Source: Eledone cirrhosa (lineage: Eukaryota). Taken from it: a stretch of DNA of 64,000 bases. The stretch is taken from positions 63,550,001-63,614,000 of the forward strand of contig OZ024742.1 of the NCBI GenBank assembly GCA_964016885.1, read 5' to 3'. A program made the position numbers and the translations under genes. The notes beneath the pieces were generated by a model. That model was not told where the DNA came from and searched no databases. It saw nothing but the letters and a program-made list of their open reading frames with translations. Below are positions 3,248 to 59,691 of the stretch, one piece after another. Each line of letters starts with the position of its first letter. The first letter of the stretch is position 1.

Positions 3248-6200
3248 GATAGAGAAGTACAGTTCATTGTTATAGCAGAGAGAGAGAGAGAAGTACAGTT
3301 CATTGTTATAGCAGAGAGAGAGAGAGAAGTACAGTTCATTGTTATAGCAGAGAGAGAGAGAGAAGTACAGTTCATTGTTATAGCAGAGAGTGAGAGAAGT
3401 ACAGTTCATTGTTATAGCAGAGAGAGAGAGAGAAGTAGATTGTTGTTATAGCAGAGAGTGAGAGAAGTACAGTTCATTGTTATAGCAGAGAGAGAGAGAG
3501 AAGTACAGTTCATTGTTATAGCAGAGAGAGAGAGAGAAGTAGTTTGTTGTTATAGCAGAGAGTGAGAGAAGTATGTTCATTGTTATAGCAGAGAGAGAGA
3601 GAGAAGTACAGTTCATTGTTATAGCAGAGAGAGAGAGAGAAGTACAGTTCATTGTTATTGCAGAGAGAGAGAGAAAGAGAAGTACAGTTCATTGTTATAG
3701 TAGAGAGAGAGAGAAGTACAGTTCATTGTTATAGCAGAGAGAGAGAGAGAGAAGTAGTTTGTTGTTAAAGCAGAGAGTGAGAGAAGTATGTTCATTGTTA
3801 TAGCAGAGAGAGAGAGAAGTACAGTTCATTGTTATAGCAGAGAGTGAGAGAAGTACAGTTCATTGTTATAGCAGAGAGAGAGAGAGAGAAGTACAGTTCA
3901 TTGTTATAGCAGAGAGTGAGAGAAGTATAGTTCATTGTTATAGCAGAGAGAGAGAGATAAGTACAGTTCATTGTTATAGCAGAGAGTGAGAGAAGTACAG
4001 TTCATTGTTATAGCAGAGAGTGAGAGAAGTACAGTTCATTGTTATAGCAGAGAGAGAGAGAGAAGTACAGTTCATTGTTATAGCAGAGAGTGAGAGAAGT
4101 ACAGTTCATTGTTATAGCAGAGAGTGAGAGAAGTACAGTTCATTGTTATAGCAGAGAGTGAGAGAAGTACAGTTAATTGTTATAGCAGAGAGAGAGAGAA
4201 GTACAGTTCATTGTTATAGCAGAGAGTGAGAGAAGTACAGTTCATTGTTATAGCAGAGAGAGAGAGAGAGAGAGAAGTACAGTTCATTGTTATAGCAGAG
4301 AGTGAGAGAAGTACAGTTCATTGTTATAGCAGAGAGTGAGAGAAGTACAGTTCATTGTTATAGCAGAGAGAGAGAGAAGTACAGTTCATTGTTATAGCAG
4401 AGAGTGAGAGAAGTACAGTTCATTGTTATAGCAGAGAGTGAGAGAAGTACAGTTAATTGTTATAGCAGAGAGAGAGAGAAGTACAGTTCATTGTTATAGC
4501 AGAGAGTGAGAGAAGTACAGTTCATTGTTATAGCAGAGAGTGAGAGAAGTACAGTTAATTGTTATAGCAGAGAGAGAGAGAAGTACAGTTCATTGTTATA
4601 GCAGAGAGTGAGAGAAGTACAGTTCATTGTTATAGCAGAGAGAGAGAGAGAGAGAGAAGTACAGTTCATTGTTATAGCAGAGAGTGAGAGAAGTAGAGTT
4701 CATTGTTATAGCAGAGAGTGAGAGAAGTACAGTTAATTGTTATAGCAGAGAGAGAGAGAAGTACAGTTCATTGTTATAGCAGAGAGTGAGAGAAGTACAG
4801 TTCATTGTTATAGCAGAGAGAGAGAGAGAGAGAGAAGTACAGTTCATTGTTATAGCAGAGAGTGAGAGAAGTAGAGTTCATTGTTATAGCAGAGAGTGAG
4901 AGAAGTAGAGTTCAATGTTATAGCAGAGAGTGAGAGAAGTAGAGTTCATTGTTATAGCAGAGAGAGAGAGAGAGAAGTACAGTTCATTGTTATAGCAGAG
5001 AGTGAGAGAAGTACAGTTCATTGTTATAGCAGAGAGTGAGAGAAGTACAGTTCATTGTTATAGCAGAGAGTGAGAGAAGTACAGTTCATTGTTATAGCGG
5101 AGAGTGAGAGAAGTACAGTTCATTGTTATAGCAGAGAGAGGGAGAGAGAAGGACAGTTCATTGTTATAGCAGAGAGAGAGAGAAGTACAGTTCATTGTTA
5201 TAGCAGAGAGTGAGAGAAGTACAGTTCATTGTTATAGCAGAGAGAGAGAAGTACAGTTTATTGTTATAGCAGAGAGTGAGAGAAGTACAGTTCATTGTTA
5301 TAGCGGAGAGTGAGAGAAGTACAGTTCATTGTTATAGCAGAGAGAGAGAGAGAAGTACAGTTCATTATTATAGCAGAGAGAGAGAGAGAGAGAAGTACAG
5401 TTCATTGTTATAGCAGAGAGTGAGAGAAGTACAGTTCAGTGTTATAACAGAGAGAGAAAGAGAAGTACAGTTCATTGTTATAGCAGAGAGAGAGAAGTAC
5501 AGTTCATTATTATAGCAGAGAGAGAGAGAGAAGTACAGTTCATTATTATAGCAGAGAGAGAGAGAAGTACAGTTCATTGTTATAGCAGAGAGAGAGAGAG
5601 AAGTACAGTTCATTGTTATAGCAGAGAGAGAGAGAAGTACAGTTCATTGTTATAGCAGAGAGTGAGAGAAGTACAGTTCATTGTTATAGCAGAGAGTGAG
5701 AGAAGTACAGTTCATTGTTATAGCAGAGAGAGAGAGAAGTACAGTTCATTGTTATAGCAGAGAGAGAGAGAAGTACAGTTCATTGTTATAGCAGAGAGTG
5801 AGAGAAGTACAGTTCATTGTTATAGCAGAGAGAGAGAGAAGTACAGTTCATTGTTATAGCAGAGAGAGAGAGAAGTACAGTTCATTGTTATAGCGGAGAG
5901 TGAGAGAAGTACAGTTCATTGTTATAGCAGAGAGAGGGAGAGAGAAGTACAGTTCATTGTTATAGCAGAGAGAGAGAGAAGTACAGTTCATTGTTATAGC
6001 AGAGAGTGAGAGAAGTACAGTTCATTGTTATAGCAGAGAGAGAGAGAGAAGTACAGTTTATTGTTATAGCAGAGAGTGAGAGAAGTACAGTTCATTGTTA
6101 TAGCAGAGAGTGAGAGAAGTACAGTTCATTGTTATAGCAGAGAGAGAGAGAGAAGTACAGTTCATTATTATAGCAGAGAGAGAGAGAGAAGTACAGTTCA

Positions 6201-8145
6201 TTGTTATAGCAGAGAGTGAGAGAAGTACAGTTCAGTGTTATAACAGAGAGAGAAAGAGAAGTACAGTTCATTGTTATAGCAGAGAGAGAGAAGTACAGTT
6301 CATTATTATAGCAGAGAGAGAGAAGTACAGTTCATTATTATAGCAGAGAGAGAGAGAAGTACAGTTCATTGTTATAGCAGAGAGAGAGAGAAGTACAGTT
6401 CATTGTTATAGCAGAGAGAGAGAGAAGTACAGTTCATTGTTATAGCAGAGAGTGAGAGAAGTACAGTTCATTGTTATAGCAGAGAGTGAGAGAAGTACAG
6501 TTCATTGTTATAGCAGAGAGAGAGAGAAGTACAGTTCATTGTTATAGCAGAGAGTGAGAGAAGTACAGTTCATTGTTATAGCAGAGAGAGAGAGAAGTAC
6601 AGTTCATTGTTATAGCAGAGAGAGAGAGAAGTAGAGTTCATTGTTATAGCAGAGAGTGAGAGAGAAGTACAGTTCATTGTTATAGCAGAGAGAGAGAGAG
6701 AGAAGTACAGTTCATTGTTATAGCAGAGAGAGAGAGAAGTACAGTTCATTGTTATAGCAGAGAGAGAGAGAAGTACAGTTCATTGTTATAGCAGAGAGTG
6801 AGAGAAGTACAGTTCATTGTTATAGCAGAGAGAGAGAGAAGTACAGTTCATTGTTATAGCAGAGAGTGAGAGAAGTACAGTTCATTGTTATAGCAGAGAG
6901 TGAGAGAAGTACAGTTCATTGTTATAGCAGAGAGAGAGAGAAGTACAGTTCATTGTTATAGCAGAGAGTGAGAGAAGTACAGTTCATTGTTATAGCAGAG
7001 AGAGAGAGAGAAGTACAGTTCATTGTTATAGCAGAGAGAGAGAGAAGTACAGTTCATTGTTATAGCAGAGAGAGAGAGAAGTACAGTTCATTGTTATAGC
7101 AGAGAGTGAGAGAAATACAGTTCATTGTTATAGCAGAGAGAGAGAGAAGTACAGTTCATTGTTATAGCAGAGAGAGAGAGAAGTACAGTTCATTGTTATA
7201 GCAGAGAGAGAGAGAAGTACAGTTCATTGTTATAGCAGAGAGTGAGAGAGAGAAGTACAGTTCATTGTTATAGCAGAGAGAGAGAGAAGTAGAGTTTATT
7301 GTTATAGCAGAGAGAGAGAGAAGTAGAGTTCATTGTTATAGCAGAGAGTGAGAGAGAAGTACAGTTCATTGTTATAGCAGAGAGAGAGAGAGAGAGAAGT
7401 ACAGTTCATTGTTATAGCAGAGTGAGAGAGAAGTACAGTTCATTGTTATAGCAGAGAGAGAGAGAGAAGTACAGTTCATTGTTATAGCAGAGAGTGAGAG
7501 AGAGAAGTACAGTTCATTGTTATAGCAGAGAGAGAGAGAAGTACAGTTCATTGTTATAGCAGAGAGAGAGAGAAGTACAGTTCATTGTTATAGCAGAGAG
7601 TGAGAGAGAAGTACAGTTCATTGTTATAGCAGAGAGAGAGAGAGAGAGAAGTACAGTTCATTGTTATAGCAGAGAGAGAAGTACAGTTCATTGTTATAGC
7701 AGAGAGAGAGAGAAGTACAGTTCATTGTTATAGCAGAGAGTGAGAGAAGTACAGTTCATTGTTATAGCAGAGAGTGAGAGAGAGAAGTACAGTTCATTGT
7801 TATAGCAGAGAGTGAGAGAAGTACAGTTCATTGTTATAGCAGAGAGAGAGAGGAGTACAGTTCATTGTTATAGCAGAGAGTGAGAGAAGTACAGTTCATT
7901 GTTATAGCAGAGAGTGAGAGAGAAGTACAGTTCATTGTTATAGCAGAGAGAGAGAGAAGTACAGTTCATTGTTATAGCAGAGAGAGAGAGAAGTACAGTT
8001 CATTGTTATAGCAGAGAGAGAGAAGTACAGTTCATTGTTATAGCAGAGAGAGAGAGAAGTACAGTTCATTGTTACAGCAGAGAGTGAGAGAAGTACAGTT
8101 CATTGTTATAGCAGAGAGAGAGAGAAGTAGTTTGTTGTTATAGCA
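3248..8145. repeat. ~4.9 kb minisatellite: AGAAGTACAGTTCATTGTTATAGC + variable (AG)n
   Basis: constant 24-mer separated by variable-length GA tracts, well over 100 copies. Confidence 0.98.
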
Positions 8146-11345: not shown

Positions 11346-11539
11346 ATATCGCAAGTGTCAACAAACGCAAGAGAAAAGAAGAAACAGTAAAAGCAAAAGA
11401 TAAGAAAATGGTAAATAATATCAAATAATTATTAAAAAGTATTGACATTAAAAACGTTACAGGAGTCGCATTACACGAATAATTAAGTTTCATACATACA
11501 TATATATATATGTGTGTATGTATGTATATATATGTATGT

Positions 11540-11595
11540 TTTCTGATGAAAGCGCACCATAATTTGCCTTGGTGGCCCTTGAAATATGTATAAAA
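11540..11595 (+). ncRNA. hammerhead ribozyme type I, probably degenerate or 5'-truncated
   Basis: CTGATGA (11543), stem II AAG..CACCA/TGGTG..CTT, GAAA (11581), near-palindromic ATATGTAT stem III, AUA site; stem I only 3 bp. Confidence 0.5.
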
Positions 11596-11658
11596 TAAAT
11601 ATGGTTTTATAAATATAGTTTCCATTTATTAATATATTATATGTATGTATGTATGTAT

Positions 11659-12280: not shown

Positions 12281-12335
<55 letters not shown>

Positions 12336-12421
12336 GTAGGTCCCGGGTTGAGTCGGGGATAACCACAGTAAGTAAGGTACTCAATACATGGCAGAGTAAA
12401 ATTTTTTTATTTTATAGAAGG

Positions 12422-12472
12422 AGCTTCTACAGGACTAGTACTGTTTCATTCAGATGAAATCTTCAGGAAGCT
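12422..12472 (-). ncRNA. hammerhead ribozyme type I in the PLE terminal region
   Basis: AGCUUC-CUGAAGA-U(UUCA UC UGAA)U-GAAA-CAG UACUAGUC CUG-UA/GAAGCU; complete core with three stems. Confidence 0.9.
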
Positions 12473-12934
12473 GGGTGTCATATTAAGTTCTGGTATTTAT
12501 ACATTTAGGTAGTGGTAAGGGAGGGGTGGTGGATTGGGGGGTGGGGGAATGGTATTTAGATACATAGGACCACTTCATGGCACAGGCCGTTTTTTCTTTG
12601 GGGAGTGGTCAATTAGCCAGAGTGCTTTTTGAAATAAATAAATAAGTAAATAAATAAATAAATGAATAAATAAATAGATAAATGAATAAATAAATAAAAT
12701 AAATTAAAAAATAAAATAAATAAAAAATAAATAAATAAAAAAAGTAATTCAACAGATATATAGTAGGGAAATTTTTTAGGTGGGTTGGTAATAGAAATTA
12801 AACATTTAACAAGACCGAATCATGGCACAGACTGGGGTGAGTGGTCAAGTTAATATACAAGCCACAGGTGGCCAGAGTGTTTTTGTAGAATGGAAAGAAT
12901 AAAATATATTTACATACTCACAACCACATACAAA

Positions 12935-12959
12935 AAACCTTTGCACACACATACACACC

Positions 12960-13001
<42 letters not shown>

Positions 13002-13092
13002 CACACCTACACATTCACACACACATACACACATATATATATATATATATACACTCACACACATATGTGTGCGTATACACATACACATACAC

Positions 13093-13123
<31 letters not shown>

Positions 13124-13650
13124 TACATACATACACATATATACACAAGAAAAACACAAACACACAAATATACACACACACAAATATACACACACACACG
13201 CATACACATACACACACATATATATCTACACATACACACGTGCGCATACACATACATATATATGTATACATATATATATATAAATATATACACACCTACA
13301 TGTACGTATGTCTCTCTCGTGTAAACTATACTATACATACACATACATATGCACACACATACATACACATACATATACACACAAACACATACATTCACAC
13401 ATATATATATACATATATACACATACACACACACATACATATATAATCTCATATATATATATATATATACTTATATACATATATATATATACATACACAT
13501 ATACATATATATACACACATACATATACACATATACATACACACACATACACATTTACAAGCAAACACGCATGCATACACATACATACATACAAATAAGT
13601 ACACATAAACGCATATGCACAAACACGCACTCGTTCGCACTCATACATGT
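12935..13650. repeat. compound (CA)/(TA) microsatellite
   Basis: dinucleotide low complexity; the overlapping ORFs are artefacts. Confidence 0.95.
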
Positions 13651-15484
13651 GTCTATAATATGAGGTAGTGGGACGAATTTTAAATTTTAAATTTAAACTG
13701 GGCCTGATAGAGGATTAAAATAATTAATGTCACTATTAAGTTATTAATATTATCATCAAGTAATTAATTACTATTTATTATTTATTATCTATTACTTATT
13801 ATTTACCATTCACTATTCGTTACCTATCCTTTATCCTTTATCTATTCATTACCTAATCATTCACTCATAAATTAATAAATAAATTAATGAGTTAACTAAC
13901 AAACAAACAAACAAACAGATAAACAAATAAACCAGTAAATAAGTAAATAAATAAACAAATAAATAAATAAATAGATAAATAAGTAAATAAAGTAACTAAA
14001 TAAATAAATAAAATAAATAAATAAATAAATATACAGTTAAATAGATAAATAAATCATGAACGTGTGCGTGCAGCAGTTCATAACTGCACGTATGCAAACA
14101 TGAGAAGGTATATACGTGAATTTGTGTGTGCGGCCACGGAACTTTACTCAGAGGCATACAACACAATATATAAGACCTGGAGGGGAGGAAAGAAGGTAAT
14201 AATGAGAGATAGAGGGGAGGAAAGAGGGTAATAATGAGAGATGGAGGGACGGAAATGGGATGGGGGCGGGGTGGGGTGGTGATATGGGGGGGGGTCAGTC
14301 GGGGGGCCGGGTGGGTGGGTGGGGGGGGGTCTGTAGTTTTTGTAATTTGCATAGTTCTTGTGCATGCAATTAGGGGAGTGTTCCGAGATCTTGTTGAGGA
14401 GAGGGCCTTTGGCGAATAGAATCTCATAGCTCTCGGAGATACAGAGGTCACAGCAATTATGGCCTCCCGTGTTTGATCGCGCTCTCCGGAGTAGTCTCCA
14501 TTGGGTCTTGAAGGGGATGGAGTTCCTTTTTAGGTGCCAGATGTGGGCGGCGAGTGTAGTCTGGTTAGATTTGTCTGGGCGCCGGAACGAATGTGTGTGG
14601 GCGTACCAGCGAGACTTAAAACTATTAGAAGTCATCCCGATGTACGAGTTTCTTTTTTCATCGGGGCCTGAGAGTACATCGCATGTATACACGAGATCTT
14701 TTTTTAGACAGTTGTTGTTGAGAGGGCAGGTCGTCTTATCAGGGCAATTGCAGTTGCTATCGGTTGCTGGATGGGCTACGGAAAAAGTAGACTTATTTAG
14801 CTTCTTGATGTTGTTGTTGGCTAAGTTTCTAGCTAGATTAGGTGTGGTAGAGTAAGAGAGTCTAATGGTATTCTTATTAAGGATAGTATAGTACCTATGT
14901 TGGGTGGGGAAGTGTTTTTGTAAGAGAGTGAAGAAAATTTTAGCTACAGGTGTTGAAACTTCTCGGTTGAGGGGGGGGGGGGGGGACCAGCTAATGTGCC
15001 TTCGCCTATTCTTCCTGGGTGGGCGTGGGGCTATAGTTAGGTAGGTGATCTTATCTCTAAAGCCGCTGCGGACCAGGGCCTCGTTGTAATAGGGGGCTGC
15101 TGCTCTAAAGATATCTTCATTGGCGGCGAGGCTAGATATCCTAATGGAGACACTTTTTACTAGGTTGTCTAATATATTTTTGGGGTGGTTAGAATTAACG
15201 TCTATATATCTAAGGGATTCATTAGGTTTGTGGTACGGGTAGTAAAGGGAAGTTTCTAAGTCGAGGGTAACGTCTAGGAAGTTAGCTTTAGTTAAGTTCG
15301 AATCTAAGGTAATCCTAAGGCCTAAGTTTTTAAAGAAGGTGTAAAGGTTTTTCCTGAATCCATCCGTGGTCCTGGGGTTGATTTTGTGGAGGGCAAAGAG
15401 GCCGTCATCTCGGTAGAGACCGCCGGAGAGGCCTGTGAAGAGGGTCTATATATATATAAGGAAATATATATATATAAGGAAATA

Positions 15485-15563
15485 GCTATCTGATGAAATC
15501 TACTTTCCGTTGGAAATTCTCTGAATTTCCAATCTTTTGTGGATGGAAACCGCCGGTAATAGC
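15485..15563 (+). ncRNA. hammerhead ribozyme type I with extended stem II (copy 1)
   Basis: GCUAU-CUGAUGA-A AUCUAC..UUGGAAAUUC/GAAUUUCCAA..GUGGAU G-GAAA-CCGCCGG-UA/AUAGC. Confidence 0.85.
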
Positions 15564-15962
15564 ATTATGAACAGGTAGATATTTAAATCATTTTTAATTT
15601 ATTTAAAGGATTGTTTAATGTTTGTTTGTTCTGCTCATCAATTTTTATAGTTCTGGTATCTCTAATTAGTACCATAGAACAACAATTATATTATAGACAC
15701 CCTATATATCTCAATGTGTACTTAGTACTCAATGAGATATTTACCTCATTTTTATATATTCTCCAATCTATGTAGAGAAAAAAATTCGTTGTTGCTTACT
15801 GCTATTTTTTTAGCAGCCAAGCCATCAACAAGTCTATAATATTCCCGCTTGCTCTAGTGGACAGGTCACGTATGGGTCACTTTAACGGCTATAACTCATA
15901 CGAGCTGGTAGTTAGCATTATATTTGCGGACCATGGGACGTATGTCCTATCGAAAGGAAATA

Positions 15963-16041
15963 GCTATCTGATGAAATCTACTTTCCGTTGGAAATTCTCC
16001 GAATTTCCAATCTTTTGTGGATGGAAACCGCCGGTAATAGC
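15963..16041 (+). ncRNA. hammerhead ribozyme type I with extended stem II (copy 2)
   Basis: same as copy 1, with a single change in the distal hairpin loop of stem II. Confidence 0.85.
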
Positions 16042-16119
16042 ATTATGAACAGGTAGATATTTAAATTATTTTTTAATTTATTTAAAGGATTGTTTAATGT
16101 TTGTTTGTTCTGCTCATCA

Positions 16120-16212
<93 letters not shown>

Positions 16213-17183: not shown

Positions 17184-17551
17184 GTGTGTGTGTATGCATA
17201 TATGTGTGTGTATGTATATATATATGTGTTTATGTATATATATGTATATATATATATATGAAGATAAATTAACGGAGCCATAGAGTCGCGTTATTCCCTA
17301 TAAATTATGTGCTCAAAGGGAAAGGAATCCTATACATATTGTATATGGATATATATATGCATGTATATATATGTATATGTGTATATATATGCATGTATAT
17401 GTGTATTTATATATATGTATACGTGTGTATGTATGTATATATATGAATGTATATATATATATATATGTATGTGTATATATATAGATGTAATCTGAATTTT
17501 ATAGATGTAATCTGAATAGTATGGTAGAATATTAAGTGTTAAATGTTAATG

Positions 17552-17589
17552 GAACAAGTACTTTCATTCTTTCGCAATCTTCAGGTTCA
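17552..17589 (-). ncRNA. minimal hammerhead ribozyme, left arm
   Basis: UGAAC-CUGAAGA-UUGCGAAAGAAU-GAAA-GUAC-UU/GUUC; palindromic AAGUACUU stem III; stem II has a mismatch. Confidence 0.7.
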
Positions 17590-18510
17590 TATTCTGTGGT
17601 GACAGTCAAGTTTGCAATTTTCAACTGTAATGAGATGGGGAAATTTTGTGCCTTATATACAGTGAAAAGCGGCTACAGAATGGTAAATCTTGCAAACTGT
17701 ATTTCGACCAATTGGTGTGTAGTTTCACTGGATTACTGAAGCTGATTGGTTTAGGCCTCATGGTTGGTTGAGTATGTCTAACGACTTCTATTTGGCTCTA
17801 TCCAAAGCATCAATTGTTTTGCTATTTTTAGAAATGATGTAAATAGCATTTTCTAGGGTTTTTATGCCCCTAAGAATTATTATTGTTCATTTAGCTTGGG
17901 TTGGAATTTATCAATAAAATTATTTTCTTTGATTTTTCTCTTGATTTCACTTGGCCTGTGTAATTTGTAGAATGTAAATATTATAAATATTTTCTAACCA
18001 CATGTTGCTAGATGGTTACTCAGGGGTATCTGACAGACATTTGGGTCTCTGATTTGCTGTCGGTGCATCCGTGCACGTTCCGATAGTGCATTTCCAGTTT
18101 GACCGACATATAGTTCTTCACAATTCGGGCATTTAATGCAGTAAATTAGATTTCTGCTTTTGCAGTTCATATTTGCATTTGGGAATATTTTTCAAAATTC
18201 CAACCCAAGCTAAATGAACAATAATAATTCTTAGGGGTATAAAAACCCTAGAAAATGCTATTTTCATCATTTCTAAAAATAGCAAAACAATTGATGCTTT
18301 GAATAGGGACAAATAGAAGTCGTTAGACATGCCCAACCGTGATGCCTAAACCAATCAGCTTCAGTAATCCAGTGAAACTACACACCGATTGGTCGAAATA
18401 CAGTTTGCAAAATTTAGCATTCTGTAGCCGCTTTTCACTGTATATAAGGCACAAAATTTACCCATCTCATTACAGTTGAAAATTGTAAACTTGACTGTCA
18501 CCACAGAATA

Positions 18511-18549
18511 TGAACCTGAAGATTGCGAAAGCATGAAATTACTTGTTCA
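18511..18549 (+). ncRNA. minimal hammerhead ribozyme, right arm
   Basis: UGAAC-CUGAAGA-U(UGC GAAA GCA)U-GAAA-UUAC-UU/GUUCA; stem III palindrome broken. Confidence 0.7.
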
Positions 18550-18708
18550 ATTAATACTTAACACTTAATATTCTACCATACTATTTCATTCTAATACCAT
18601 TATAATTTTAAAGGATTGTAAATAAAACGAGTAAATTAGACAAAGTTGGAATTCCTTTTATTAATATAATCTTCTATACACAATCATACACACCCGTGTA
18701 TATTTATT

Positions 18709-31659: not shown

Positions 31660-32917
31660 TCATCATCATCATCATCATCAACGTTTAACGTCCGTGTTCC
31701 ACGCTTGCATGGGTTTGGACGGGGGTAGTCCCACTTGAGGCAAGAGTGATTGTCTTGCTCGCATAGGACTGTCTGGCAGGTTTTCTACAGTTGGATGCCC
31801 TTCCTAACACCAACCACATTTACAGTGTGGGTCTGGGAGGTTTTTACCGTGTTGCCTACACGGCCACATTACAGCGTGGACTGTGTGTTTTTTTGTCGTG
31901 ACACCTACACGATCTCATTTGTTTCGGCCTCGATGGCGCGGCACCAACATAACTTTACATAGAACGGGGTGGTGTGGATGGGGTGGTGGTGGTGGTGGTG
32001 GGACGGGGTGTATTTTGTTAGAGATGCCTACTGGCTGTAGTAGATTTTACTATGTATTTAGGTAAGGCGGGTCTTCTCTGTTACTGAGTACCGCCAAAGG
32101 TCTCGGTCCAGTGACATTGTCTTGGAGAGGTGTAAGTGTGTGAGGTCGGAGTTTATCAGCTCGTCCCAGGTTTTTCTAGGTCTGCCTATTCCGTGGCTAC
32201 CGTCTATCTTTATTTCCCTGCACTTTGTTATACAGCTATCGACTTTCATGCGCATCACATGTCCATACCAACGTAGCCTTCTCTCGAGTAAACAACATCT
32301 GATCCCTCTTATTTCTAATTTTTTCCTTAGTTCGTTTATGCTTTGCCGTTCACGTATATTACTGTTACACATCCAGCGGAGCATGCAAGCTTCGTTCCTC
32401 TCTAGTCTGCGTATATCCTCTGCACACAATGCCCAGGTCTCACTGCCATGCAACATTGCTGTTCGTATGCAGGCATCGTACAACCTGCCTTTCATTTTTA
32501 GGGAGAACCCTTTAGCAGCTAATAGTGGTATAAGCTCTCTGAACTTTTTCCAACCAGTTCTGACTCTAGCTACTGTACTTTCAGAGCACCCTCCCCCACT
32601 GCTGATTTTATCGCCCAGGTAACGGAAGCTGTCCACTATTTCTATAGAACCCTCAGCGCAATTGAAGGAGCTAGTATTTTGTGGGCACTTGCTGCTACTT
32701 ATTGCACCAGAGCACCGGCCACATGTAAAATCTATGTTCTTAGTTAGCTTACCTGTGATCCCACTACATCTTTTATGCACCCATACTTTGCATTTAGGAC
32801 ATAAAATGGAGTTTCTACCTACGCCTTTCCTACACACCGAGCACGACCATTTCCCAGAAGGGACCGCCGCCTTGTTTTCTTTCCTACAAACTAGAACTTT
32901 AGTCTTAGCCAGGTTAA
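31660..32917 (-). mobile_element. young 5'-truncated RTE LINE with PHD-type finger
   Basis: open frame INLAKTKV..CSVC..CPKC..HKRC..CGRC..FRYLG..LHGSETW..RRLRWYGHV..GRPRKTW; 3'UTR ending in (GAT)n. Confidence 0.92.
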
Positions 32918-32920
32918 TTT

Positions 32921-32953
<33 letters not shown>

Positions 32954-32984
32954 ATATTAGTTTATATATATGTGTGTGTATATT

Positions 32985-33348
32985 GAGAGCATTGGCCTTG
33001 CAATCGAAAGGTTGTGAGTTCAATTCTCACACCGGGTGATGTGTTGTTTCCTTGAGCAAGACACTTTATTTCACATTTCTCCAGTTTACTCAGCTGTAGA
33101 AATGAGATGATAGGACTGGGGTCCCTATCATTCCACTGCAAAGTGGCCGTGGAGGTGCCATGGCAAAAAAGCATCCAGCCCACACTGTAAAGTGGATGTG
33201 GAGGTGCCACGGGAAAAAAGCACCCAGCACTCACTGTAAATGAGGTTGGTGTTAGGAAGGGCATCCAGCTGTAGAAATCAAGCCAGAATCAGTTCCCGTC
33301 CCACCCTTGCAAGCAGGGAAAAAGTGGACGTAAAATGAAATGATGATG
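32985..33348 (+). mobile_element. family A SINE
   Basis: near-identical to 2853-3233. Confidence 0.88.
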
Positions 33349-38189: not shown

Positions 38190-40520
38190 GTGAAGCACAA
38201 ATGTGACTCTTTAAACCAGCCAAATACTTGCACCCTCTGGCACATACATGGCAACTTTAGGCTCCCCCGAAACCTTCCATTGCTTTGTTCTGGCTGTATG
38301 TTCACATGTATCTTTTAAGACCTCCCATGCTTGTACATTTCTTACATCTTTCAGATCATAATCTACATGAGGTCTACTGATATGACTTTGTTCATGTCTA
38401 ATCAAACCAGCTTTGCTCAGGCTGACTCGACCAAAGTGCTGGCAAACCAGATGATGTTCAACAGCAGGGAGTTCAGAACAGTCTCAATCCTCACCTTCCT
38501 TTTCAGTGTTAGGTGTTCTCTCCGACGAGTTTCAAAGTGTTCACCACCTGACTTGATCAAACGTCTCCACTTCACACGCTCATCAGCCATTTTCTCCCAT
38601 TCGTCAGATGAAATTCCAGCACAAGCCAAGGTGCCCCTGATACAGTCCCGGTACCGCCTTTTTGGTTTATGTGGTGGTCGCCTTCCTTCACATAGTTCTC
38701 CATAGAGAAGTTGCTTTGGAAAACGATCATCAGACATCCGGACCACGTGACTACACCACCTCAACCGATACCGAAAGATTATGCTCTCTATAGTCACGCA
38801 CCTGCTCCGTTCTAGAACTTCCAAATCACTGGCGAACATTTTCCACCACACCCCAAGTAACTTATGAAGAGATTATTGGTGAAATCTCTCCAGATCCTTG
38901 AGGTGCTTTCTGTATATGACCCACGTTTCACAAACATAAAGTAAAGAGGAGACGACACAAGTCAGATACACTTTCACCTTGGTTTCGATAGTGATACCTC
39001 GTCTGGACCATAAACGTTGATGCAGCTGTCCAAAAGCATCACTGGCTTTCTTGATTCTTAAGAATATTTCATTATCATGTGTGCATGAAGTGTTCAACGT
39101 ACTACCAAGGTAAACAAACTTGTCAGCAACTTTTAGCCTCTTTCCGTACACGTACACACTTGGTGCAGTGTACTCGTTTCCAGGTACTGGTTGATACATC
39201 ACAACAGTCTTTTCCAAGCTTATTGTGATGCCCAAAGTGCTGCAAGATGCAGAAAGAGAGTTCATAATATGCTGGATGTCACTTTGTGAGTGTGCAAAAT
39301 GATCGCAGTCGTCTGCATACAAAAACTCTCGGATTATAGATGTTAATACCTTTGTGCTTGTACCAAAGCGCCTAAATATAAGAAAAACAGAGTTGGAGCC
39401 GGAATGTCCCCCTGCTTCACTCCATTTTCAACTGATATTGGTTCAGAGATGCTACCACCAATACTGACCAAAGCCTTCATGTCATCATGGAAAATATGCA
39501 GAATCTTCTACCCTACCTTGGATTTTTTTCCCACAACGCAGTTTGATTGACAGTGTTAAAGGTCTTTGTCAAGTCAACAAAGACCTGGTAAAGGTCCATA
39601 CATTGTTCGATACACTTTTCTTGAAGCTGCCGAGCAGAAACGATCGTATCCACTGTTCCTCTTTTGTTTCTGAACCCACACTGCGACTCAGGCAACACAT
39701 TCAGAGCAGCTCTTGGGATCAATCTATCCATCAATATTCGACACGACTTTACCAACTACTGAAAGAAGGGATATGACATGATAATTGCCACATTTGTCCT
39801 TTCCTTTATAGAGAATCACCATGAGCGCATCTTTCTTGTGGGACATTCTCATCTTCCCACACCATTTTCATGAGGTCAGTCAGGCACTGCGTGAAGTTTT
39901 CACCACCACACTTCAAAACCGCTCCACTCAAACCATCCATACCAGGAGACTTACCACAGTTCAGCTTATGCACAACAGAAGTCCCCTCTGCAAGAGAAGA
40001 TACATTAGCCATCTCATATGCTTCACTGGTTCAATAATAATGGAACGAATGAAATCATCATCAACCTGGGATGGCTGGTTTAAGAGTTCATCAAAATGAT
40101 CTCTCTATCTGTCGAGTGTCATTTGGGTCGCGCAGTAATTGCTTGCCATCTTTCGATCTCAAAGGGGCCACTGGAGAGCTGAAAGGGCCATACACCTCTG
40201 TGAGTAGAAAGTGCGGCAGTTTCACATTGTTGCCGTCAGATGCCACTTGAACTTCATCTGCTTTGTTGTTCCACAGGTATTTTGCAAAGCCCTGAGTTTC
40301 ACCTGCACTTCCTTCTTTACCTGTCTGTAACACTCATAATTGTCACCAACAGAGCTACCACCTTTAAGAACTGCATCAAGTGCCTTTTGTTTTCTGTCTA
40401 GCAGAGCCTTGACCTCCTGGTCATTCTCATCAAACCAGTCCTTGTTTTCTTGTGACAAAGCCAAGGACCTCTGCTGAAGCCTCATAGACCAAGCTCCTGA
40501 AGTCCTTCAAGTTGTTCTCA
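38190..40520 (-). mobile_element. degenerate RTE (BovB-like) LINE
   Basis: DWFDEND, LPESQCGFR, RQLQEKC, FVDLTK, YADD, FVYLGS, RLRWCSHV..QLLYGEL with frameshifts. Confidence 0.92.
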
Positions 40521-41529: not shown

Positions 41530-42251
41530 TGCGGGCACTACAACACTATTAGCTGTCATATTTGTTGGTGAAAAAAATTTGATTATAAAACTTAAATTTA
41601 TGAATGACTTGTTTTCTAATTAACTTAAATTTGTTTTCTAATATTTTCATTTAAGTAACTCTACTTACATCGATATGCTTTATAACCATGACTTGTTTTC
41701 TATTTGTTTTCTAATTTGGCCTTTTTAAGTCTTACCTCTCTCTCTCTCTCTTCCCTATCTCTCTCAAAAAAACGCGTGAAAACTTACGCGTGGTAGTAAT
41801 ACGGAAATAAACGATGTTGACGTGTGACGTCACCTTCGCCTGTTTTCCACTGGACTGACAGCTAATAGCGTTGTAGTGCCAAAAATTCTATTGAAGCATT
41901 ATTATTGTTGGAAAAAAAAATGCATAATTTCTGATGGCTTTGGATTTAAGATTCGTTAAAAACACGTAAAAAAATCAATTTCCCATCAAACGTGAGACGG
42001 ATGTAAATCTATAAATTTACCGTCGAAAATTGCCCTTTACTTTATCGCCCTCGTAAGGTTGAAAGCAAAGTTGACCGCGACGAGATTTGAACTCAGAACG
42101 GGATTAAAATGCTAACGGATTCCCGCCAGAATAGTGTAACAAAAGAGAATATACAAAGGGAGATAAGTCAGAATTTCCGCGCCACAAAACGAAAAAGACT
42201 GCAAAAAATCTTTCCAACATTTTCACAACTCGGAAGTATCTTGGATTGATT
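41530..42251. promoter_or_regulatory. putative bidirectional promoter upstream of RPA3
   Basis: CpG-enriched; CRE TGACGTCA at 41825; E2F-like TTCCCGCC (42120) and TTTCCGCGCC (42174); minus-strand donor GTAAGT at 41782-41787. Confidence 0.55.
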
Positions 42252-42608
42252 ATGTCTTCCTTAAAACATGCTACTTCTCGTATCTCTGGCAAAATGATGG
42301 AGAAATACCAAGGCCGGAAAGTCTGTTTACTTGGTATTGCTGAGGGAGTTGACAACAGTGGCTTATCTTTTCAACTGAAGACCTGCGACAATGTAAACGT
42401 GAAAGTCCATTTAGCTGAACCATTGAACGAATATGTTGGTGGATTAACGGAGGTGATCGGCGAAGTAAGTTCGAACACCAGCATTAACTGTCACGACTAT
42501 GTGCTCTTCACTAAGGAACAGACTGATTCTTTTGATATGGATATGTATAATACTGCAGTGGACATGATAATCAAATATTCTGATTATTATAAAGTTGGTG
42601 TGAACTGA
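42252..42608 (+). CDS. RPA3: replication protein A 14 kDa subunit, single coding exon
   Basis: 118 aa OB-fold pattern RISGKMMEKYQGRKVCLLG..LKTCD..V.V.L..P..EVIGEV..FDMDMYN.AV; intact ATG to TGA. Confidence 0.9.
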   Translation: MSSLKHATSRISGKMMEKYQGRKVCLLGIAEGVDNSGLSFQLKTCDNVNVKVHLAEPLNEYVGGLTEVIGEVSSNTSINCHDYVLFTKEQTDSFDMDMYNTAVDMIIKYSDYYKVGVN

Positions 42609-51959: not shown

Positions 51960-53090
51960 ATTATGGATCTATTATTATGGATCTAAGTTTTTTCTTATTA
52001 GTTTTAGGAGAATGGTCTGGAAAACAGGGAATATTCTCTGAGAAGCCACTATTGCATAAGGCTATGTTATAGTATGGGGATACCATATCAAAGATAGCTT
52101 TGTTTGATGAGAGGTTAGAGATCCATTTGCTAATATTCTTAACTACATTTTTAAAGACTATAGATGGATGGCATGAGCTTTTATGTATGTATCTAAGGTT
52201 TTCACTGGGCTTATGGAATGGTTTATGTGTGTGTAGACATAGGTCCAGGTTAAAGTCTAAACAGTTAACATTAGTCAGGTTGGCTGATACTGTGATTGTT
52301 AGTCCTATGTTTCTAAAGGCAATGATTAGATTTTTCTTACATGTGTCAAGGTCATGGCCATTTTTATGACTTGATAAGGCTACACCATAGTCGTGGTATA
52401 AACCCATCTGAAAATCCATCCATGAATTTGATGCATAAAATATCCAGGATAAAGAACCACACCAAATAATGATCTGATAAGGACATAGAAAAGGATGTTA
52501 CTTACAGACTTCTTTAGGCAGGCATCTACCTTATTGAAGAGGAGGGTCTGTCTGCAGTGGGATATGACCATATGGTCCAAGTCATGGATATCATTAAATT
52601 TACCGGCAAAGTGCAGATATCAAAGGCCACAATATCAAATTGGATGAATCTGGCACTATCCGTGAGTTTAAGGGAGTTAAACTAATTTAGTACAAATTGA
52701 CTATTTTCTGATTGGTTTAGCTAACTGTTTCTTAATGTTAGTATTTAAATTTCTAAATAAGTTTTTACTTAGACCTAATTCTGTTTTGGTGAGATTAATG
52801 AGTCTGCATGTAGGGTTAGTAATAAAATCATCCTTGTGTGCTTTCTGTGTTATGATAAGCCTCCCTTTTTGCTAAGCTTTCTAATTTATTTTCTACTCAT
52901 GGTCATGGCAATGTATTTAGCTTAATCATTGATAGTGTTATATGTGGTAGGGGTCAGCTTACTTATATTTAGACTGTATGGTCTTATCTATTAAGTGGCT
53001 GTGGGTAGTAGGATCATGTTCATAGAGGCTATTAGTTTTATCAGATAGGACAGAATGCTTATTGAAATATTTAAAACTATTTATGTCTCT
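51960..53090 (-). mobile_element. degenerate Penelope-like (Naiad-like) RT fragment
   Basis: FIQFDI, GLYHDYG, HKP..LRYIH..HP, PYYN.AL..SGF. Confidence 0.8.
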
Positions 53091-56715: not shown

Positions 56716-57850
56716 ATCATCATCATCATCATCGTTTAACGTCCATATTCCACGCTCGCATGGGTTTGGACGGGAGTTTTCCCACTTGAGGCAAGAGTGG
56801 TTGTCTTGCTCGCATAGGACTGCCTGGCGGGTTTTCTACAGCTGGATGCCCTTCCTAACACCAACCACATTTACAGTGTGGAACTGGGAGGTTTTTACCA
56901 TGTTACCTACACGGCCACATTACAGCGTGGACTGTGTTTTTTTTGTCGTGACACCTACACGACCTCATTTGTTTCGGGCTGGATGTTGTGGTACCAACAT
57001 AACTTTACATTGAAAGGGGTGGTGTGGATGGGGTGGGGGTAGTGGGACGGGGTCTATTTTGTTAGAGGTGCCTACTGACTGTAGTAGGTTTCACTTTGCA
57101 CTTAGGTAAGGCGGGTCTTCTCTATTACTGTGTAGCGCCAAAGATCTCGGTCCAGTCACATTGTCTTGGAGATGTGTAAGTGTGTGAGGTCGGAATTTAT
57201 CAAGTCGTCCCAGGTTTTTCTGGGTCTGCCTACTCCGTGACTACTGTCTATTTTTATTGCCCTGCACTTTTTTATACAGCTGTCGTCTTTCATGCGCATC
57301 ACGTGACCATACCAACGTAGTCTTCTCTCGAGTAAACAACATCTGATCACTCTTATTTCTAATTTCTCCCTTAGTTCGTTTATGCTTTGCCGTTCACGTA
57401 TATTACTATTACACATCCAGCGGAGCATGCAAGCTTCGTTTCTCTCTAGTCTGCGTATATCCTCTGCACACAATGCCCAGGTCTCACTGCCATGTAACAT
57501 TGCTGTTCGTATGCAGGCATCATACAGCCTGCCTTTCATTTTTAGAGAGAACCCTTTAGCGGCCAATAGTGGTATAAGCTCTCTGAACTTTTTCCATCCC
57601 GTTCTGACTCTAGCTACTGTACTTTCAAAGCACCCTCCTCCACTGCTGATTTTATCACCAAGGTAACGGAAGCTGTCAACTATTTCTATAGAACCATCTG
57701 TGCAATGGAATGAGTTAGTATTCTGTGGGCACTTGCTGCTACTTATTGCACCAGAGCACCGGCCACATATAAAATCTATATTCTTAGTTAGCTTACCTGT
57801 GATCCCACTACATCTTTTATGTACCCATACTTTGCATTTGGGACATAAAA
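56716..57850 (-). mobile_element. RTE LINE 3' fragment nested in the PLE
   Basis: close copy of 31660-32800; actc at both junctions. Confidence 0.9.
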
Positions 57851-59691
57851 CTCTGAAACAATACCATATCGGTTATATACTGGTTCAAAGAAACCCTATT
57901 GAAAGGCAAGGCTAAGTTTATTCAATTTGATATAACCGATTTTCACCCTTCTATGAATAAAATACTACTAGACAAGATGTTAGACTTCGCTCGTACCTTC
58001 AGGCCTATCAGTCTTTCTCTAACCCATGACCGCAACAGGTACGATATGGACAAGTTCCGTAAAGACCTAATAAATACCTTTCACAACCTAGGCCTTAAAA
58101 TCACAATAGACACGAACATTACTAGCATAAACTTTCTCGATGTCAACCTAGACCTATGAAGAGGCACATATAAACCATATCACAAACCGAATGAGAGACT
58201 GAAATACATTAACAGAGGATCATACCACCTGCCCACGGTGTTTAAAAATCTAGTACTTAACATTAGCCATTGAATCTCAAACTTATCATCCAGCAGAGAG
58301 ATATTTGATAAAGCAGCGCCGTACTATAACAAGATTCTCCGAGATAGTGGATTTAAAGAACAGATCAAATACATACTTAATAGTCACCCACCTAGAAATA
58401 ACAATAGAAAAAGAAAAATAATCTATTTCACACCTCCTTTCTCACAAAATGCAAAAAATAAAATAGGTAAGAAATTCTTAGACCTTATAAGATAAGCACT
58501 TTACCCCTCAACATATATACAGTAAGATCTTCAATCAATGTTCAGGATGCTCTTGCAGGAAGAAAGACGACTGCTCATTACAATTAAACTCTAATGTTAA
58601 ATCCATAATATACGAAGCAGAAATCAAATGCACAAATGCCAACAAGCCAGAGACCCACAAAAAAATATGTACATATGATCCATGACTGTTTTAAAAAGAG
58701 ATTCTACTTGCACCTTTCCTCATTAAGACATCCTAACATGAAAACCACCACAGCATGACAAAAAGGGTCTGGGAATACCCGATGACATGGAAAGTGCTCA
58801 AAATGTCAATATCATATAAAAACGGAAGCAAAAAAATACTTGCTCTGCCTAAGTGATAATTTCAGGATTTTACTCACTGGATACTTACCTAAACTCAAAG
58901 ACAAATCTTCAGATCATGCTTGCATCAATTTTTATCCAACTGGAAACCCACCTGCAAGACACCCTCTGACTGGACCTCCTGAACCCTCTATGATACTACC
59001 TACCTCTAGTACCCATTAATGAGGACACCACATGCATATACAGATTAACAATTTGTTGAAAGAGACATTAAAATTACAACAGCACATTACAACCGACGGA
59101 CACACAAACATACAAATTTTTACATCTCAGAACTTATATTTGGTGACATACCAATAAATATAGAAATTTTGAGTATATATGCATGTGTGTGTGTGTGTGC
59201 ATGCATTTATAGGTTCCCATACAGATATGTGCAAAGCTATATATGTATGAGCATATGTGCTGCCAAATGCATGTCTGTTTTTTTTAAATCTTAATAATTT
59301 GTTATATGTGTGCATGTGTGTGTCTGTATATGTATGACAAGTTAATTTAATAATTTTAGCTATCTACAAACTACCTGACAGAAAAAAACCCTAGAAATTC
59401 TGAAAAATTCATATACAGATTTCAAGCCATATTTGCCTCCCCTGTTTCAAATATGAAGATCTCACCACTCAGAGGAAGAATTAGTCGAGGGATAACTACA
59501 TCCCTTTTCATATCTTTGTCCCACGTGCCTAAATGATGGGCCAGTTTCAAAGTGCCTCCTCCATTATACAGTGGTCGCCATGACTAGACCCTGAAACCAA
59601 TGGTAGCACATACATGTTAAGTGTATGAAACTTTCTTTATACTAAATAAACTTTCTTCCAACAGATTGACCACTGTTTATCCCTGTGAGAG

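Follow-up and report, generated by a model that had tools for sequence, protein, structure and literature searches.

A non-coding 478-nt hammerhead repeat with a long stem II and Penelope-like insertion anatomy in the genome of Eledone cirrhosa

The window analysed here, a 64,000-nt stretch of the Eledone cirrhosa genome (assembly GCA_964016885.1, contig OZ024742.1, positions 63,550,001 to 63,614,000 of the forward strand), contains two type I hammerhead motifs 478 nt apart, with CUGAUGA cores at 15490 and 15968 and GAAA-stem III-GUA ends (GAAA-CCGCCGG-UA) at 15558 and 16036, after which cleavage is predicted. Both are located where the sequence-only reading had placed them. The copy amounts to 1.36 units between TA tracts, one full unit and about 170 nt of a second (Table 1), and its own 3' end, at about 16120-16123, is the equivalent of the position termed end A below. 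The longest ATG frame in the cut-to-cut monomer has 58 codons, and the unit, which carries no reading frame for a reverse transcriptase with a GIY-YIG domain, is not an autonomous Penelope-like element (PLE). The earlier description of the ribozyme core as canonical holds for the core boxes, but not for the usually conserved G10.1-C11.1 pair, which is A.G here. An Rfam scan of the window returned 80 weak matches with no hammerhead among them, and Tandem Repeats Finder, run on the same stretch, did not list the unit.

Table 1. Features of the 478-nt element, its surroundings in the window and related families (positions of the window unless a locus is named)
Feature	Position	Strand	Remarks
Hydra-clade Penelope-like element, 5'-truncated	12335-15446	-	open frame 14144-15445
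Type I hammerhead of that element	core 12466, predicted cut after 12428, end 12335	-	short 12-nt stem II
5' junction	15447-15484	.	TA repeats with an 18-bp tandem duplication over the unit's first bases
Full 478-bp repeat unit	15476-15953	+	5' end truncated, joined to TA repeats
GGAAA strand	15478-15482	+	2 nt ahead of stem I; predicted to form a pseudoknot with the internal loop of stem II
Hammerhead 1, type I	15485-15563	+	predicted cut after 15558 (GUA)
Hammerhead 1, stem I	15485-15489 with 15559-15563	+	
Hammerhead 1, core; stem II; stem III	15490-15496; 15497-15545; 15549-15557	+	
Stem II extension	15504-15538	+	UUUCC (15504-15508) opposite CUUUU (15534-15538), distal 11-bp helix (15509-15533) inside
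Predicted cut-to-cut monomer	15559-16036	+	478 nt, 34% GC; candidate circular RNA
3' end A of family insertions	15639-15649	+	about 87 nt past the cut; U-rich, unpaired in the consensus fold
Hairpin opening with GUUCUG	15650-15683	+	directly 3' of end A; base kept in two other long-stem-II families
3' end B	15747-15759	+	110 nt past A
Partial second unit	15954-16123	+	stops at 3' end A, then (TA)n; 97.7% identical to unit positions 1-174
GGAAA strand, second copy	15956-15960	+	
Hammerhead 2	15963-16041	+	layout as hammerhead 1; core at 15968, predicted cut after 16036
(TA)43 target tract at the 3' end	16123-16209	.	
Three further long-stem-II families	loci L083, L115, L130, L288; L241, L263; L046, L165		

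As had been read from the sequence, the unit adjoins, across TA repeats, the truncated 5' end of a PLE on the opposite strand. The open frame of this neighbour contains CxCX5C, CxxC and CxH motifs, with DKT in longer relatives, and these identify it as Hydra-type, a classification that rests on the motifs, as Pfam returned no family for the frame. The predicted cut of its hammerhead lies 93 nt ahead of the element end, and its 3' region consists of more than 1 kb of microsatellite-like sequence common to its relatives, followed by a canonical hammerhead. The neighbour was considered as the source of the unit and rejected, since ribozyme and ends differ. The best BLASTN match of the unit to PLE termini (20 PLE loci and the window's own) has an E-value of 0.059 over 16 nt, in agreement with the earlier remark that the two are not visibly homologous, and the unit is absent from all 29 loci of the neighbour's family as well as from 20 of 20 further PLE loci. 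Among these 49 loci, all of Hydra-like lineage, there is no autonomous element that shares the ribozyme, the ends or the terminal homology of the unit. The neighbour is probably an insertion separate from the retrozyme copy; a single chimeric event that joined the two head to head is not favoured, because TA repeats separate them, while the arm junctions in our census of genomic copies (see below) are direct or nearly so.

The genome also encodes near-identical Hydra-type PLE copies of a family related to the neighbour, with open frames of 758 aa (loci L246 and L248-L253; e.g. L249:1835-4108) and a hammerhead just upstream. This Hydra-type lineage likewise ends at two sites in TA. We regard its intact proteins as the likeliest candidate helpers of the 478-nt element, although no sequence link to the unit was found. 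Naiad proteins also target TA.

Several other hammerheads were noticed in the window and in the loci retrieved from the genome. Positions 17515-18585 comprise an inverted repeat with arms of about 400 bp and one small hammerhead per arm (cores at 17584 on the minus and 18516 on the plus strand), with a U.U-closed stem II, a GAAA loop and, in the minus copy, a palindromic stem III; it looks like another two-armed insertion. A motif at 11535-11640 (+), with its core at 11543, a 30-nt stem II and a palindromic stem III, belongs to a frequent family whose insertions lie in TA and have two 3' ends, and two short-stem-II hammerheads 472 nt apart at L246:6542-7014 (-) are probably a further retrozyme. 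Short-stem-II motifs that carry the stem III of the unit (4 and 7 matches) were dismissed as degenerate, with no PLE protein match nearby. The remainder of the window includes a 34-bp satellite of about 141 copies (3251-8145), LINE fragments, one with a PHD finger and one with a reverse transcriptase match, together with a second PLE-like fragment (32058-33026, 57156-57872, 38417-39427, 51961-52497), and an uninterrupted frame matching replication factor A subunit 3 (42135-42608, plus strand; PF08661, E-value 2.9e-18), which is a single-exon gene or a retrocopy.

The locus is one of many. Searched exactly, a 21-mer taken across the predicted cut matches 314 times in the 3.0 Gb genome (none for the reversed control), a wider long-stem-II pattern that includes sister subfamilies (together, the clan) matches 1,303 times (again none for the control), and a sequence search of the genome gave 111 matches at the best 40 loci scored. 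In three contig sets from one sample the unit is covered like a repeat family, a pattern that carries nothing on expression; the loose ends of these contig sets led to sister families of 457-468 nt, about 69% identical to the 478-nt unit, and the repeat period is kept at 457-480 nt across the sisters. Copies are about 96% identical to the column majority, most private changes having arisen after insertion. For a census we took the first 100 listed of the 314 matches (all of C1 and most of C2), chosen by the ribozyme motif alone, which correspond to 80 loci of 5 kb with 126 arms after removal of one unrelated match at the edge of locus L225. Upstream of these arms lies, without exception, unit sequence, an inverted arm or target DNA, and none of the 80 loci runs on into a PLE reading frame; PLE protein matches occur at 11 or, in a second scan, 13 of the loci, at scattered distances and on scattered strands. 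The partial-tandem genomic copies expected from the sequence-only reading were found, dispersed and up to 2.0 units long in the 478-nt family. As sampled in the census, the element is a dispersed, multicopy, non-coding repeat without an attached ORF or LTR structure, and it combines several features of retrozymes: a non-coding unit of a few hundred nt, a type I hammerhead, head-to-tail repetition and a self-paired monomer.

The census arms nearly all run into TA repeats at their 3' side, and end there at two fixed places: 66 of the 126 stop at A (unit positions 160-178, the exact base being blurred by the TA target), 51 at B (275-284) and 9 elsewhere, whereas the 5' ends are scattered. Single-armed insertions account for 36 loci and multi-armed ones for 44. 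At the latter the outer ends are A and B in 36 cases, A and A in one, B and B in none, and not scorable in seven (an end elsewhere), so that 36 of the 37 scorable insertions pair A with B against an expected proportion of 0.49 (p = 1.7e-10). Nine of the 126 arms span two cut sites, and the longest arms seen in the 478-nt family measure 867 nt (1.8 units) and 971 nt (2.0 units). Partial tandems, an inverted 5'-truncated arm, an optional tail and a microsatellite target thus occur together, and this insertion anatomy is that of PLEs, for which partial tandems, inverted 5'-truncated arms and optional tails have been described, along with hammerhead-carrying Hydra elements that target (TA)n (PMC8557442). 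The 110-nt stretch between A and B corresponds to the optional Penelope tail. In vitro, the tail of an anole PLE lies between two internal start sites, and the anole protein nicks and extends both strands (PMC11167929); the rule that one end is A and the other B fits two start sites combined with such two-strand nicking. The hairpin that follows end A may serve as a protein-recognition element.

The core boxes CUGANGA, GAAA and UH surround a three-helix junction with helix I open, as in type I hammerheads, and position 7 is the sole core column with a common variant among 103 copies. Stem I has 5 bp. The 49 nt of stem II lead from an A.G mismatch through 6 proximal pairs and a 5x5 internal loop of pyrimidines to a distal helix of 11 bp capped by a 3-nt loop, with predicted pair probabilities of at least 0.90; the distal helix, counted as 10 bp when the locus was first read, has 10 Watson-Crick pairs plus a G.U. 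Stem III, which had been called too tight as a monomer and nearly self-complementary, behaves accordingly in folding calculations, with +0.4 kcal/mol as a hairpin against -10.2 kcal/mol as a duplex of two ribozymes, and the duplex is predicted with a probability of 0.60-0.65 in the natural 648-nt precursor. Stem I is absent from single-sequence folds (p about 0), and in the consensus fold of 24 monomers three of its pairs form along with stems II and III. Like the window copy, 15 of 19 representatives of the clan lack the standard G10.1-C11.1 pair. This pair is reported as highly conserved in PLE-associated hammerheads (PMC4209133) and is not obligatory, U-U variants being known in hammerheads (PMC7229834, PMC3088659).

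The same 19 representatives, picked from 154 distinct clan ribozymes, support the helices by covariation. In all, 91.7% of cells pair, and 12 of 31 pairs change on both sides (one in helix I, six in proximal and five in distal stem II), while helix III is invariant, being partly fixed by the search pattern. The covariation score was reached by none of 500 shuffles, a kind of test that kinship of the sequences inflates. Folded as a circle, the monomer reaches -119.0, compared with -90.3 +/- 4.6 for 100 dinucleotide shuffles (z = -6.3), and in the circular consensus of 24 monomers 22 of 143 pairs show two-sided changes. All four spacer helices listed in the sequence-only reading (atattatagac/gtctataatat, atatctca/tgagatat, ctgcta/tagcag and gggac/gtcct) are present in the predicted circular fold.

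The length of stem II is suggestive of a tertiary clamp. The GGAAA ahead of stem I is kept in 141 and the UUUCC of the internal loop in 142 of the 154 distinct clan ribozymes, and both stay while proximal stem II turns over almost completely. The two strands are complementary and, with helices I and II in a parallel arrangement, would be adjacent; being invariant, they show no covariation within the clan. Three other hammerhead families with stems II of 49-55 nt and the same shape carry, at the equivalent positions, complementary pairs of other sequence (GAGAA/UUCUC and GAAAA/UUUUC; GAGU/ACUC and GAGC/GCUC; AAAGA/UCUUU). The cognate complementary run averages 4.9 nt, against 3.1 nt when strands are matched across families, and the observed total was reached by 4 of 720 permutations and 1 of 10,000 shuffles, in windows picked after inspection of the sequences. 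Two of the three families share the tail hairpin with the 478-nt family, which makes them distant kin rather than independent cases. At one locus of the third listed family (L046) we noted a repeat period of about 479 nt. UUUCC could instead form a hairpin with the GGAAA present in the distal helix, but this is disfavoured, since the distal helix covaries. We think it probable, judging from sequence, that stem II acts as a clamp in which UUUCC pairs with GGAAA and replaces the usual loop 1-loop 2 contact. Triples of the U.A-U type, as known from ENE elements, could also involve the opposite U-rich strand, CUUUU, although a triple helix of this kind seems rather unlikely. Stem I-stem II pseudoknots are reported as common in hammerheads generally (PMC3088659).

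The copies also carry information on the RNA from which they were made. At 60 subfamily-diagnostic columns the opposite arms of one insertion agree in 1209 of 1301 comparisons and its tandem repeats in 848 of 907, i.e. 93% within insertions against 70% between loci, which indicates that both arms derive from one RNA lineage. Long arrays are lacking from the sampled 478-nt family and were seen only in a sister: a 457-nt locus (L322, L323; G000:C1:156424800-156439500) contains 19 and 9 ribozymes in two arms with ends equivalent to A and B, and all 26 of its complete units share two variants that are absent from 7 units at three other loci, each of which has shared variants of its own. This homogeneity favours a circular monomer as template, since copying from linear RNA would require a separate homogeneous array for each locus. 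The sister array is very young, and one of its two locus-specific variants is an A-to-G change on the sense strand. In the 478-nt family there is no A-to-G excess on that strand of the kind left by RNA editing (25 changes versus 47 T-to-C), private changes are shared in 6 cases and unshared in 144, and the alleles of terminal and internal repeats do not clearly differ, although a difference would be expected had the master been linear with two repeats. On balance, the template was probably circular.

A possible trace of cleavage was sought in the 5' ends, tallied by eye for arms extending past unit position 94, of which the first 100 in a list of 365 were used. Twelve arms (two of them belonging to one insertion) start in the 11 nt after the predicted cut, six within the first 3 nt, versus two in the preceding 21 nt (p = 2.3e-4). 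The census rate would predict 4.2 starts after the cut, and against this expectation p is 0.0013. In the matched control, where the same five letters lie upstream of the core, the counts were 4 versus 0, and the reversed pattern gave 2 chance matches. The census as a whole has no step at the cut site, the stopping rate rising steadily with length (0.32, 0.40 and 0.33 per 40 nt around the cut), and the stretch after the cut is AT-rich, which could favour junctions with TA targets. The cluster is a hint that part of the template pool may be cleaved linear RNA.

Taken together, we consider the element likely to be a retrozyme, i.e. a non-coding repeat whose RNA would self-cleave and circularise and would be copied into TA microsatellites by a Penelope-like enzyme. 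A partial-tandem copy would be transcribed, and its two hammerheads would, as folding predicts, pair through the palindromic stem III and cleave as a double ribozyme. The 478-nt monomer would then be ligated, by analogy with the retrozymes of coral, mussel and axolotl. Next, both strands of the TA tract would be nicked by a PLE protein, for which the Hydra clade with its TA targets is the most plausible source, and reverse transcription would be primed, following the model of the anole PLE, at the two fixed internal U-rich sites 110 nt apart at which the observed ends lie. Copying through the ribozyme junction would give rise to the partial tandems and the head-to-head two-armed insertions that are seen in the genome. 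The proposal of the sequence-only reading, a non-autonomous retroelement mobilised by PLE machinery, is thus supported at the genomic level by insertion anatomy, copy number and the absence of an attached ORF in the census; neither a single-copy locus nor constant attachment to an autonomous PLE ORF, the genomic grounds for refutation given there, was found. In related systems, cleavage in vitro is reported for only one of nine Xenopus retrozymes (bioRxiv 10.64898/2026.07.22.740005), and hammerhead mutants had no effect on insertion by the anole PLE in vitro (PMC11167929).

Three other explanations have to be weighed against a retrozyme. The element could be a non-autonomous Penelope derivative copied from linear read-through transcripts of tandem copies, uncleaved or cleaved once, with a ribozyme that trims the 5' end or is dispensable and with no need for a circle. 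Such a template would account for arms that rarely exceed 1.2-1.8 units in the 478-nt family, for 5' ends that gather just after the cut, where it would start, and for the two polymorphic columns at which the repeats of the window copy differ; unprocessed RNA is, moreover, the main substrate of the anole PLE (PMC11167929). It fits poorly, however, with the nine census arms that span two cut sites, and with the 28-ribozyme sister array, homogeneous in both arms, and the locus-specific variants at the three other sister loci, and we consider this explanation improbable.

Type I hammerheads with a small palindromic helix III are carried by PLE pseudo-LTRs (PMC4209133), and the unit could be the ordinary pseudo-LTR of an unsampled autonomous PLE family, its short copies being truncation products, especially as rare full-length elements could escape genome searches that score the best 40 DNA candidates. 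Against this, the motif-chosen census loci never lead upstream into anything but the unit, an inverted arm or target DNA, no sampled PLE locus contains the unit, and the period is held within narrow bounds across the sisters, which together leave this origin very improbable. Least credible of all is satellite-like DNA that was amplified as DNA and whose ribozyme has decayed beyond function: the high identity of copies to the column majority and the post-insertion age of most private changes would suit it, yet the copies are dispersed and sit in TA targets, their 3' ends fixed and their 5' ends random, the core is invariant except for position 7, and compensatory changes distinguish the subfamilies. 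A retrozyme mobilised by a Penelope-like enzyme remains our preferred interpretation.

Animal non-LTR retrozymes have been described as tandem repeats with type I hammerheads that are expressed as circles in coral, mussel and axolotl and for which PLEs are the suggested helpers (Cervera and de la Pena 2020, PMC7229834), and retrozymes have also been linked to PLE pseudo-LTRs (Li, Clavereau and Pollet 2026, bioRxiv 10.64898/2026.07.22.740005). The 478-nt family resembles the elements described in these two studies in being non-coding and of low GC content, with one type I hammerhead per unit, a self-paired monomer, no LTR and a weak palindromic helix III suited to dimer cleavage, and in its co-occurrence with PLEs, by which both studies propose mobilisation. 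At 478 nt it is larger than the 170-400 nt circles and 150-450 bp repeats given in PMC7229834, and falls inside the 51-972 bp range of the bioRxiv preprint. Unlike animal non-LTR retrozyme arrays, its copies are mostly dispersed insertions of 0.3-2 units with two fixed ends and inverted arms, and its 49-nt stem II sets it apart from known animal non-LTR retrozymes. As both Rfam and Tandem Repeats Finder miss the unit, a tandem-repeat-first pipeline like that of the preprint would miss this copy.

With Hydra-clade and other EN+ PLEs (Craig et al. 2021, PMC8557442; Frangieh et al. 2024, PMC11167929) the family shares (TA)n targets, 5' truncation, partial tandems and an inverted arm, as well as an optional tail, which in PMC11167929 is traced to two internal start sites 3' of the hammerhead. 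It differs from them in the absence of a reverse transcriptase-endonuclease frame, in a tail of 110 nt versus 30-40 nt, and in having no homology to the Hydra elements examined; the cut-site motifs are absent from one supplementary file of Craig et al. 2021. The PLE-associated hammerheads of Cervera and de la Pena (2014, PMC4209133) are described as having a helix I of 4-5 bp, a helix II of 7-8 bp, longer than usual, and low activity except as dimers. The ribozyme of the 478-nt family has the same short helix I and small palindromic helix III, whereas its helix II adds an internal loop and 11 more pairs, and G10.1-C11.1 is missing. Compared with the pseudoknotted hammerheads of Perreault et al. 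(2011, PMC3088659), whose drawings may include a similar case, the partners here are an internal loop 7 pairs up the long stem II and the 5' flank of stem I, in an animal retroelement. A literature search found no description of the 478-nt family or of the clamp, and supplementary files may show similar ribozymes.

The class itself, animal non-LTR retrozymes, is known, which limits the surprise; what sets the 478-nt family apart is the architecture of stem II together with a clear two-site insertion record. The long stem II points to a hammerhead tertiary clamp overlooked by descriptor and Rfam searches, so that elements of this kind are probably undercounted. More tentatively, one may picture a group of animal retrozymes in which the loop-loop contact has given way to a pseudoknot, perhaps even a U.A-U triple helix, that joins an internal loop of the 49-55-nt stem II to the strand ahead of stem I. 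Standard searches would miss such ribozymes, and their copies may record cleavage in vivo, through 5' ends at the cut, and two Penelope-type reverse transcriptases that start at fixed sites on one circular RNA. Intact candidate enzymes in the same genome make the route testable in vitro with the 478-nt RNA. Mobilisation of retrozymes from RNA circles by PLEs has so far been proposed from co-occurrence and terminal similarity, whereas this family displays the two-start-site footprint of PLEs directly.
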